A DNA stretch of 64,000 bases, taken from Escherichia phage KEP3. The stretch lies in sequence record PP047753, one strand, 5' to 3'. The notes below the pieces were generated by a model, which did no database searches, had not been told where the DNA came from, and was given only the letters and a program-made list of their open reading frames with translations. Made by a program: the position numbers and the translations under genes. Shown here piece by piece: positions 48,104-49,269 of this stretch; positions within the stretch are counted from its first letter, which is position 1, and each line of letters begins with the position of its first letter.

Positions 48104-48180
48104 TGGAGGTTCAGATGGGAATCGAACCCACATTCATAGGGCTTATGAGACCCTTGCATTACCTTATCTGCGACTGAACC
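48104..48180 (-). tRNA. tRNA-Met: tRNA-Met (CAT)
   Basis: T-loop TTCGATT, anticodon loop CTCATAA. Confidence 0.65.
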
Positions 48181-48258
48181 AGAATAAGTACCCTAGTTAG
48201 AGAAACTGTTGAGTGGGTGTTTCCAGCCGCGCAGGTGTTTCTCAGTTAAGGGTGAATT

Positions 48259-48334
48259 TGGTAGAAGTGGAGGGATTCGAACCCATCGCCTGTCAGATTA
48301 AAAGTCTGCCGCATCACCATTCTGCTACACTTCC
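48259..48334 (-). tRNA. tRNA-Lys: tRNA-Lys (TTT)
   Basis: T-loop TTCGAAT, anticodon loop CTTTTAA. Confidence 0.65.
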
Positions 48335-48335
48335 A

Positions 48336-48477
48336 TTAAATTATCTTTGTAGATAAGCTACCCAGACTTGCTTAAGGTCTGTAGCGATGTGTCTTTTCGG
48401 GTTAAATCTAGAATCTACCCTTTCACCTTTGTGGTCGCATACTCACAGGTAAGCTTAATAGCTCACCTACAAAGATA
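48336..48477 (-). ncRNA. candidate structured ncRNA bounded by 12-bp inverted repeat
   Basis: TTATCTTTGTAG at 48336-48347 pairs with CTACAAAGATAA at 48466-48477; internal hairpins; no T-loop. Confidence 0.3.
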
Positions 48478-48532
48478 ATTACCAGACCGTTGTTTATCAT
48501 CTTAAGTGCTACCATTACACCAACTCGACATC

Positions 48533-48600
48533 TGCCGAGTGAAGGAATCGAACCTTCGCCTTTTCTTTACCGGAGAAATAGATTGTTTAAGTTTTGCTGT
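48533..48600 (-). pseudogene. tRNA-like 3' fragment (T-arm, acceptor 3' strand, anticodon arm with GGT) lacking pairing 5' half
   Basis: GAAGG-TTCGATT-CCTTC T-arm and TTTCT-CCGGTAA-AGAAA arm present; no complementary 5' acceptor; no CCA. Confidence 0.4.
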
Positions 48601-48620
48601 AAACGGTCTTCTGTAAATTT
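48591..48620 (-). repeat. tRNA-spacer repeat copy 1
   Basis: Identical 30-mer to 49163-49192. Confidence 0.7.
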
Positions 48621-48682
48621 GTTGAGCCAGACCAAGTTTTAAATTTTTCAAAATTAAATTGGCTTGAAAATATCATACGTAC

Positions 48683-48707
48683 TTGCTGAATTTGGTCTTC
48701 TGCTCCT
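48683..48707 (-). repeat. tRNA-spacer repeat copy 4 (degenerate)
   Basis: CTTGCTGAATTTGGTCTTCTGCTCC. Confidence 0.5.
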
Positions 48708-48788
48708 TTAAAGAATACTCGTAAGAACTCTTTAAGGGAGGGGCTAAATAGCCCTCTCAAAACATCATCTTGAAATACTTATTATAAT

Positions 48789-48866
48789 TTGGCGGTTACG
48801 AAGGGATTTGAACCCTCATCATCTCCCGTGACAGGGGAGTATTTTAACCAGATTAAACTACATAAC
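48789..48866 (-). tRNA. tRNA-Asp: tRNA-Asp (GTC)
   Basis: T-loop TTCAAAT, anticodon stem CTCCC/GGGAG, loop CTGTCAC. Confidence 0.7.
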
Positions 48867-48872
48867 CTTTAT

Positions 48873-48960
48873 TTGGTGTGCCGTGTAGGAGTCGAACCTA
48901 CCGAGTCTCAATGACAAGGGATTTACAGTCCCCACCGCTACCATCTACGGGATAACGACA
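48873..48960 (-). tRNA. tRNA-Tyr: tRNA-Tyr (GTA), class II
   Basis: T-arm GTAGG-TTCGACT-CCTAC, acceptor GTGTCGT/ACGGCAC, anticodon loop CTGTAAA, long variable arm. Confidence 0.65.
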
Positions 48961-49032
48961 CATTTTATATTCTATTCAGGCTAAGGACTTGCACCTTACA
49001 AATCGGTGAGCAATCGCTTCTCTCCCAAATTT

Positions 49033-49109
49033 TGGCGGTTAGTCAGGGATTCGAACCCTGTGCCATTCGCTTAACAGGCGACCGCACATACCTTATGTGC
49101 TTCCTAACC
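49033..49109 (-). tRNA. tRNA-Asn: tRNA-Asn (GTT)
   Basis: D-stem GCAC/GTGC, anticodon loop CTGTTAA, T-arm CAGGG-TTCGAAT-CCCTG. Confidence 0.7.
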
Positions 49110-49162
49110 ATGTTTAGTATTACCAGACCGTATCTTTCAATTTTTCCGCTAAGAATTTAATA

Positions 49163-49192
49163 AGTTTTGCTGTAAACGGTCTTCTGTAAATT
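49163..49192 (-). repeat. tRNA-spacer repeat copy 2
   Basis: GTTTTGCTGTAAACGGTCTTCTGTAAATTT abutting tRNA 3' end. Confidence 0.7.
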
Positions 49193-49269
49193 TGGAGGCG
49201 GGTGCAGGAGTCGAACCTGCCGATACCATGCTAATGAGACATGTGAGACGCCCTTTCTCTATACCCGCA
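49193..49269 (-). tRNA. second CAT-anticodon tRNA (Met, initiator or Ile2 type) with 1:72 mismatch
   Basis: T-arm GCAGG-TTCGACT-CCTGC, anticodon stem CATGT/GCATG, loop CTCATTA; T1 vs C72 unpaired. Confidence 0.55.

Follow-up and report, generated by a model that had tools for sequence, protein, structure and literature searches.

A tRNA of initiator-type descent and a probable elongator tRNA-Met in the tRNA array of Escherichia phage KEP3

Phage T5 is annotated with three tRNAs that carry the anticodon CAU, namely, a tRNA-Met, an 'initiator tRNA fMet', and a tRNA-Ile2. According to van den Berg et al. (eLife 2023), phages as a rule avoid carrying a gene for tRNAfMet, which is the target of the nuclease VapC, and phage Sf14 was described as lacking a tRNA-fMet (PMC12482277). 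In the present study, we analyzed a stretch of 64,000 nucleotides (nt) from Escherichia phage KEP3 (PP047753), hereafter called the window, in which an array of 26 tRNA genes includes two with the anticodon CAU, tRNA-1 and tRNA-2 (Table 1). The window is 93-97% identical over 47000-50000 to the genomes of Felixounavirus, the Felix O1-like myoviruses of E. coli and Salmonella, and Escherichia phage GEP101 is 99.9% identical to it over 48790-49525. Phages of the Felix O1 type are widely used in Salmonella and E. coli typing and in biocontrol. A literature search found no report of a tRNA-fMet in Felixounavirus. Comparisons at the sequence level led us to conclude that tRNA-2 is of bacterial-type initiator descent and shares its phage lineage with the annotated tRNAfMet of T5. 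We consider it probable that the phage carries one elongator tRNA-Met and one diverged T5-type initiator tRNA, and no AUA-reading tRNA-Ile2.

Structure and ancestry of tRNA-2

The closest annotated relative of tRNA-2 is the T5 tRNAfMet (T5t14, NC_005859 32428-32505). Both have a UGCGGGU/ACCCGC acceptor, an unpaired 1:72 position, U73, A11:U24, an xxAGU/GCUxx anticodon stem in which G30:C40 is the only G:C pair and U31 faces G39, a 6-nt variable loop, a similar T arm, and an encoded CCA. Furthermore, in both phages the initiator-type tRNA lies within a large tRNA array that also contains a separate elongator tRNA-Met. The T5 molecule differs in A37 (loop CUCAUAA), U1.U72, and the normal 2 nt between the acceptor and D stems. 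Homology between tRNA-2 and the T5-type lineage is alignable through the acceptor stem, D stem, anticodon arm, 6-nt variable loop, and T arm. E. coli tRNAfMet (metZWV; reference sequence checked in MG1655) is approximately 65% identical to tRNA-2 overall. It shares the CAU anticodon, the unpaired 1:72, acceptor pairs 2-6 (G2:C71, C3:G70, G4:C69, G5:C68, and G6:C67), A11:U24, and G30:C40. In contrast, it has C1.A72, A73, three G:C pairs in the anticodon stem, A37, C39, and the 5-nt variable loop AGGUC.

Read on the minus strand, tRNA-2 consists of the acceptor strands UGCGGGU/ACCCGCC, the connector AUA, the D arm GAGA-AAGGGCG-UCUC, an A, the anticodon arm CAUGU-CUCAUUA-GCAUG, the variable loop GUAUCG, the T arm GCAGG-UUCGACU-CCUGC, U73, and the encoded CCA. 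The D stem GAGA/UCUC gives A11:U24 if the extra A is placed before U8. The anticodon loop has 7 nt with CAU intact and U37, and U1 faces C72. An earlier note on this DNA had reported the two CAU anticodons, the U1 opposite C72, and a pyrimidine at position 37. We confirmed these observations; ARAGORN assigned this anticodon to exactly these two of its 26 calls. The 1:72 assignment depends on the register, and U1 opposite C72 is that of ARAGORN. The Rfam tRNA model starts at the G at 49268 and yields a 6-bp stem, a deletion of position 66, and a UCCA after C73, and tRNAscan-SE starts at the same G in the Sf14 orthologue (76 nt). The ARAGORN register appears to be better supported because CCA then falls at 74-76, in line with the neighboring tRNAs (25 of the 26 array tRNAs encode CCA there, as tallied from their sequences), because locus L016 and the T5 tRNAfMet (2-nt connector) show an unambiguous 7-bp UGCGGGU/ACCCGC stem, and because our bacterial-initiator covariance model selects it. 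This model aligns tRNA-2 with an inserted A after nucleotide 7 and an inserted G in the variable loop.

The major determinant for formyltransferase is a mismatch at 1:72, followed by A73, G2:C71, C3:G70, and G4:C69, together with R11:Y24 (PMC9976931). In the anticodon stem of the E. coli initiator, the indispensable pair is G30:C40, which may be enough by itself; mutants in which the first pair is U:A, or both flanking pairs are C:G, still grow, with poorer growth in the cold (PMC5389676). tRNA-2 has CAU in a 7-nt loop, an unpaired 1:72, G2:C71/C3:G70/G4:C69, and R11:Y24, and its anticodon stem (ua/GC/ug; U29:A41, G30:C40, and U31.G39) keeps only the middle G:C pair. These retained features appear compatible with initiator function and are not proof of it.

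Among bacterial initiators from GTDB genomes (n=104), 99 had a 1:72 mismatch, 103 had R11:Y24, and all had G30:C40. The phage initiator-like tRNAs (n=107) included none with G:C at 1:72, and R11:Y24 and G30:C40 were present in 102 and 106, respectively. R11:Y24 occurred in none of 129 other bacterial tRNAs. In the 515 non-CAU phage tRNAs, 15 had a 1:72 mismatch (2.9%), 61 had R11:Y24, and 0.8% had U37. These low background rates indicate that the 1:72 mismatch and U37 of tRNA-2 are not due to chance. The mismatch alone is no mark of an initiator in this array because 1:72 is likewise unpaired in tRNA-Gln(UUG), where A1 faces C72.

The 45 nearest neighbors of tRNA-2 were all initiator-like CAU tRNAs in a set of 714 unique tRNAs, which had been enriched for such tRNAs by the searches that built it. 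Members retrieved by the acceptor/D-arm pattern alone still had the T arm of tRNA-2, GCAGGUUCGACUCCUGC. A graded series connects tRNA-2 with canonical initiators. It includes a tRNA on an 88-kb IMG/VR contig that is 83% identical to tRNA-2 and has normal geometry, U1:A72, and A73. Copy A of Erwinia phage Panisse is syntenic, has the D arm and the AGGUC variable loop of E. coli tRNAfMet, to which it is closer, and scored 73.7 bits on the initiator model. In phage tRNAs such as L018, the anticodon arm is that of E. coli except for U37. Panisse (L004) also has a third CAU tRNA (copy B, 9708-9781) with the loop UUCAUUA (U37), a U31.U39 mismatch, U11:A24, and U73.

Our initiator covariance model was built from 40 bacterial initiators, and entropy weighting made it too generic (effective sequence number 1.27). 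Since tRNA-Ile(GAU) outscored tRNA-2 on this model, we relied solely on how far each score departed from the Rfam score. tRNA-2 scored 36.2 bits on the initiator model, above its 28.5 bits on the Rfam tRNA model, and was alone in this among the 26 array tRNAs; for the others checked, the initiator score minus the Rfam score was between -6 and -29 bits.

In 211 of 253 phage records, the identity to tRNA-2 is 99% or higher. Across 24 distinct regions of the Felixounavirus/Mooglevirus type, six of its 77 columns were variable versus 52-53 in the adjacent 100-nt spacers, and tRNA-2 changes roughly ten times more slowly than the spacers on its flanks. The changes comprised U1 to C1, three loop positions, and a compensatory double change from C:G to U:A in the T stem. 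The change to C1, found in a phiSUSP1-like variant, leaves 1:72 unpaired (C1.C72). The small number of variable columns and the compensatory change argue against a decaying pseudogene, and, judging from this pattern, tRNA-2 is under selection.

Several observations speak against the initiator reading and its proposed benefit. The Rfam score of tRNA-2 is just below the gathering score of 29 bits. Two of the three consecutive G:C pairs (29:41, 30:40, and 31:39) are missing, U73 and U37 replace A73 and A37, an extra nucleotide is present between 7 and 8, and the variable loop has 6 nt. On the initiator model, tRNA-2 ranked only third in the array, behind tRNA-Ile(GAU) and tRNA-Lys(CUU) at 53.6 and 40.6 bits, respectively. 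The tRNAscan-SE fMet model gave a low score for the Sf14 orthologue in a published run. The 'fMet' label in T5 is the annotation of the depositor, and we found no experiment behind it. Moreover, the anti-phage role of VapC is putative, and most tRNAs of the Felixounavirus Bas63 proved dispensable on four laboratory strains (PMC11482910).

The earlier note had proposed isotype-specific covariance models as a check. The published run on the Sf14 orthologue, which is 95% identical to tRNA-2, was uninformative: Cys scored best (28.8) and fMet, Met, and Ile2 were all low. Cys was also best for the other CAU tRNA of Sf14, and the run cannot discriminate between the two. We attribute the sub-threshold Rfam score and the 'Cys' call to U37, U73, and the extra A after nucleotide 7. 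Similarly, we attribute the statements in the two papers that tRNA-fMet is absent or avoided to their reliance on isotype classifiers. In Table 2 of PMC12482277, the first Sf14 Met_CAT row (Cys 56.9) conflicts with Supplementary Dataset 3 of the same paper (Cys 28.8, IPD -12.5); this row is nearly parallel to the second Met_CAT row and lies approximately 6-7 bits below it in 16 of the 19 columns.

Table 1. Positions in the window of the two CAU tRNAs and of neighboring features
Feature	Position	Strand	Basis or remark
tRNA-2, diverged initiator-type tRNA-Met(CAU)	49193-49269	minus	ARAGORN; sequence; models; homologues
tRNA-2, U1	49269	minus	
tRNA-2, extra A after nucleotide 7	49262	minus	
tRNA-2, G30:C40	49240/49230	minus	
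tRNA-2, anticodon	49236-49234	minus	
tRNA-2, U37	49233	minus	
tRNA-2, A38/G39	49232/49231	minus	
tRNA-2, C72	49197	minus	
tRNA-2, U73	49196	minus	
tRNA-2, CCA	49195-49193	minus	
tRNA-1, elongator-type tRNA-Met(CAU)	48104-48180	minus	ARAGORN; Rfam tRNA 55.6 bits; structure parse
tRNA-1, anticodon	48147-48145	minus	
tRNA array, 26 genes	43756-49525	minus	ARAGORN; includes both CAU tRNAs
tRNA-Gln(UUG)	45032-45107	minus	unpaired 1:72
Uncalled tRNA-like gene	46894-46980	minus	candidate tRNA-Trp
Cysteine-rich open reading frame, 185 aa	47602-48159	minus	5' end overlaps tRNA-1
Y-RNA-like structured RNA, conserved	48474-48618	minus	covariation among homologues
Stem module, 3' of tRNA-2	49112-49192	minus	directly adjacent
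Stem module, 5' of tRNA-2	49270-49360	minus	directly adjacent
Partial copy of stem module	48681-48702		
Ro60-like open reading frame, 471 aa	49691-51106	minus	DUF2828 and DUF7788 domains

tRNA-1 and readings other than an initiator

The acceptor of tRNA-1 (GGUUCAG/CUGAACC) pairs throughout and is followed by U73 and an encoded CCA. Between its strands lie the connector UC, the D arm GCAG-AUAAGGUA-AUGC, an A, the anticodon arm AGGGU-CUCAUAA-GCCCU, the variable loop AUGAAU, and the T arm GUGGG-UUCGAUU-CCCAU. G1:C72, C11:G24, and A37 (loop CUCAUAA) are marks of an elongator, with U73 instead of A73. The D arm GCAG/AUGC with a G13.A22 mismatch is common to tRNA-1, the T5 tRNA-Met, and Panisse copy C, all of which adjoin tRNA-Ile(GAU). 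Whole-sequence identity to the references ranged from 0.59 to 0.67, whether these were Met, Ile2, or fMet, and is too noisy for placement. We conclude that tRNA-1 is most likely an ordinary elongator tRNA-Met.

The earlier note had suggested an elongator tRNA-Met plus either an initiator-like tRNA or a tRNA-Ile2 that requires lysidine. The first of these pairings agrees with the data, with the elongator marks of tRNA-1 and the acceptor and D stems and T5 homology of tRNA-2 in its favor; the second is not supported. In the tRNA-Ile2 reading, host TilS would turn one CAU tRNA into a lysidine-bearing reader of AUA, with tRNA-1 as the likelier candidate. The array contains many readers of A-ending codons, a pattern that an AUA reader would suit, and tRNA-1 has A37 and an acceptor start (GGUUC, with U4:A69 and C5:G68) that resembles the annotated T5 tRNA-Ile2. 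However, ATA accounts for only 41 of the 16,394 codons (2.5 per 1000; relative synonymous codon usage, 0.13) in the 64 open reading frames (ORFs) of at least 100 aa in the window, despite a G+C content of 39%, whereas the Ile2 carriers T5 and a T4-like phage use it at 14.6 and 11.4 per 1000, respectively. The G+C content of T5 equals that of the window, yet T5, unlike the window phage, uses ATA freely and carries a tRNA-Ile2. AGA and UUA are frequent in the window ORFs, and the array supplies their readers. Panisse avoids ATA likewise. Furthermore, tRNA-1 has U73 and G29:C41, whereas phage tRNA-Ile(GAU), T5 Ile2, T4-like Ile2, and ileX all have A73, with C29:G41 in phage tRNA-Ile(GAU), T5 Ile2, and ileX and C29.C41 in T4-like Ile2. 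The D arm of tRNA-1 and its site beside tRNA-Ile(GAU) agree with the T5 tRNA-Met and Panisse copy C, and in the published isotype run its Sf14 orthologue scored 28.6 on the Ile2 model versus 45.2 on Met (Cys, 63.8). The determinants of host TilS and IleRS reportedly form a set that includes C4:G69/C5:G68, C29:G41, A73, and, as the carrier of N6-threonylcarbamoyladenosine, A37. Our Ile2 references were E. coli ileX and the T4-like Ile2, with IleRS determinants from PMC9976931. Both references share with the window tRNAs a CAU anticodon in the gene; their GGCCC acceptor (C4:G69 and C5:G68), GCGA-CUCAUAA-UCGC anticodon arm, and A73 are absent in both window tRNAs. tRNA-1 (U4:A69, C5:G68, G29:C41, U73, and A37) departs overall from the Ile2 set, as does tRNA-2 at G4:C69, G5:C68, U29:A41, U73, and U37. 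This modification counts among the strong determinants of bacterial IleRS (PMC9976931). Since U37 cannot carry this modification, the Ile2 reading of tRNA-2 is not supported, and tRNA-2 is unlikely to be a tRNA-Ile2. The earlier note had also pointed to a possible phage tilS-like gene; a tblastn search with E. coli TilS matched 32 phage records, none of which belong to Ounavirinae. We regard a tRNA-Ile2 at either position as very improbable.

tRNA-2 may also be read as an additional elongator tRNA-Met, the acceptor end of which is sloppy. Its anticodon stem is nearer to that of an elongator (E. coli tRNAMet, ua/cg/au) than to that of an initiator, tRNAscan-SE labels the Sf14 orthologue Met, and tRNA-Gln(UUG) of the same array shares the mismatch. 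However, only initiators combine the 1:72 mismatch with the G2-G6 acceptor run and R11:Y24, and the mismatch survives the change of position 1 from U to C. An unpaired 1:72 keeps initiators off EF-Tu, according to Seong and RajBhandary (1987) as cited in PMC9976931. We find this elongator reading quite unlikely. It is unlikely, too, that tRNA-2 represents a relic or a tRNA-like RNA without a role in translation, either the Y-RNA-like partner of a Ro60-like protein or a nuclease decoy, the structure of which is conserved for a purpose other than decoding. The sub-threshold Rfam score, extra nucleotide, U37, and low isotype scores would fit such an RNA. A Ro60-like gene is located directly upstream of the array, the stem modules on both flanks of tRNA-2 share their ends with a Y-RNA-like element, and the PhageMaP authors speculate that some 'tRNAs' of Bas63 may be Y RNAs (PMC11482910). 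However, the cloverleaf of tRNA-2 is complete: G18G19 is present, the T loop is canonical, CAU is intact within a loop of 7 nt, and CCA is encoded, as in the neighboring tRNAs. In addition, the anticodon loop and initiator determinants are kept from Felixounavirus to Kolesnikvirus and T5. Moreover, a better Y-RNA candidate lies nearby as a separate element, and we rejected the Y-RNA reading of tRNA-2 in favor of this element. A diverged initiator-type tRNA remains our preferred reading of tRNA-2.

Neighborhood of the two tRNAs

By our tally of the ARAGORN calls, the array tRNAs cover 19 amino acids, with no tRNA-Trp and no tRNA-Ile2 called, and records of Felixounavirus and Mooglevirus contain the same array. 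Trp is the single amino acid absent from the called set, and an uncalled tRNA-like gene is a candidate for it. This gene has the loop CUCCAAA (anticodon CCA, Trp) and a normal T arm, together with a terminal stem of 10 bp and an odd D region; its sole Rfam match was tRNA-Sec at 23 bits.

A cysteine-rich ORF occupies the gap between tRNA-Ile(GAU) and tRNA-1. The Ile, Met, and Lys tRNAs are contiguous in phages Mushroom and Sf14, unlike in the window, and the ORF consequently looks like an inserted mobile gene. HNH endonucleases are annotated in this region in relatives. A Pfam search with the 185-aa product found no match.

The structured RNA near tRNA-2 looks like a YrlA-type Y RNA. Its outer stem (UUAC/GUAA plus AGACCGUU/AACGGUCU) encloses an anticodon-arm-like hairpin, the T arm GAAGG-UUCGAUU-CCUUC, a 7-bp acceptor-like hairpin with an AGAU tetraloop, and then the D arm GUGU-AAUGGUA-GCAC. 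The core is a circularly permuted tRNA-like domain, as in the bacterial YrlA Y RNAs. Homologues were found in 28 loci. In 13 distinct homologues, three of the seven pairs of the hairpin had compensatory changes, and 97.9% of pair positions were paired, versus at most 54% when the 3' partners were shifted by 1-3 columns. An Rfam search with this RNA found no family match, and the annotated 'tRNA-like stable RNAs' of T5 did not share the permuted layout. The modules that flank tRNA-2 are shorter and have the same outer-stem ends (CAGAAGACCG...CGGUCUGGUAAU) without the tRNA-like core, and one stretch of 34 nt is 100% identical between them and the Y-RNA-like element. The Ro60-like gene is 1 kb from this element. 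Relatives annotate its product as 'RNA-binding protein/vWFA', and the Bas63 orthologue, gp130, is reported to be Ro60-like and to counter the Ppl defense system (PMC11482910).

Possible function of tRNA-2 and its anticodon stem-loop

We propose that host methionyl-tRNA synthetase would charge tRNA-2 through its CAU anticodon (PMC9976931). The unpaired U1.C72, together with G2:C71, C3:G70, G4:C69, and A11:U24, may then allow formylation by the host formyltransferase, and the same determinants would keep the tRNA off EF-Tu. The retained G30:C40 may allow tRNA-2 to work in the ribosomal P site.

VapC of the enteric bacteria Salmonella and Shigella is described in PMC4105405 as cleaving tRNAfMet between A38 and C39, and cleavage depends on both sequence and stem-loop structure (PMC8522696). 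The stem-loop of tRNA-2 appears to be rebuilt around this site, with U37 for A37, A38|G39 for A38|C39, and an AU-rich stem. van den Berg et al. (eLife 2023) likewise described phage tRNAs that differ from those of the host at or beside a nuclease cleavage site. Unlike the statements of that study and of the Sf14 paper, the window phage appears to have an initiator-type tRNA, in a disguised form. We infer that tRNA-2 may act in initiation and escape VapC. Its likeliest advantage would be a supply of initiator tRNA that is unseen by nucleases directed at the stem-loop or by enzymes that modify A37.

Viral and bacterial initiator-like tRNAs were gathered with the same acceptor/D-arm pattern (IMG/VR, L077-L195; GTDB, L198-L317). 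Anticodon loops other than CUCAUAA were present in 30 of the 107 from viral contigs and in two of the 115 from bacterial genomes (p = 8e-9). CCCAUAA (11 times) and UUCAUUC (9 times) were among the non-canonical phage loops. The stem-loop changes in the phage tRNAs included U37, G37, C33, C38, and G39, with U37 plus A38|G39 as the Felix-O1/Moogle variant. It is conceivable, although we hold it doubtful, that phage initiator tRNAs with rebuilt anticodon stem-loops are a widespread counter-defense against toxins that cut the host initiator, such as VapC.

As an initiator-type tRNA, tRNA-2 would give these phages a tRNA set that consists of 19 amino acids and a dedicated start tRNA, with no AUA reader. 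This assignment would correct the statements in two recent papers that the VapC target tRNA is missing, and would apply to at least 250 sequenced genomes that carry tRNA-2 nearly unchanged. tRNA-2 would also represent a natural initiator tRNA with the middle G:C pair only, in agreement with the mutational work in E. coli. If counter-defense of this type is real, initiation of phage translation would persist after cleavage of the host tRNAfMet in cells of Salmonella, Shigella, and E. coli, and the published claim that phages avoid encoding the VapC target would be reversed.

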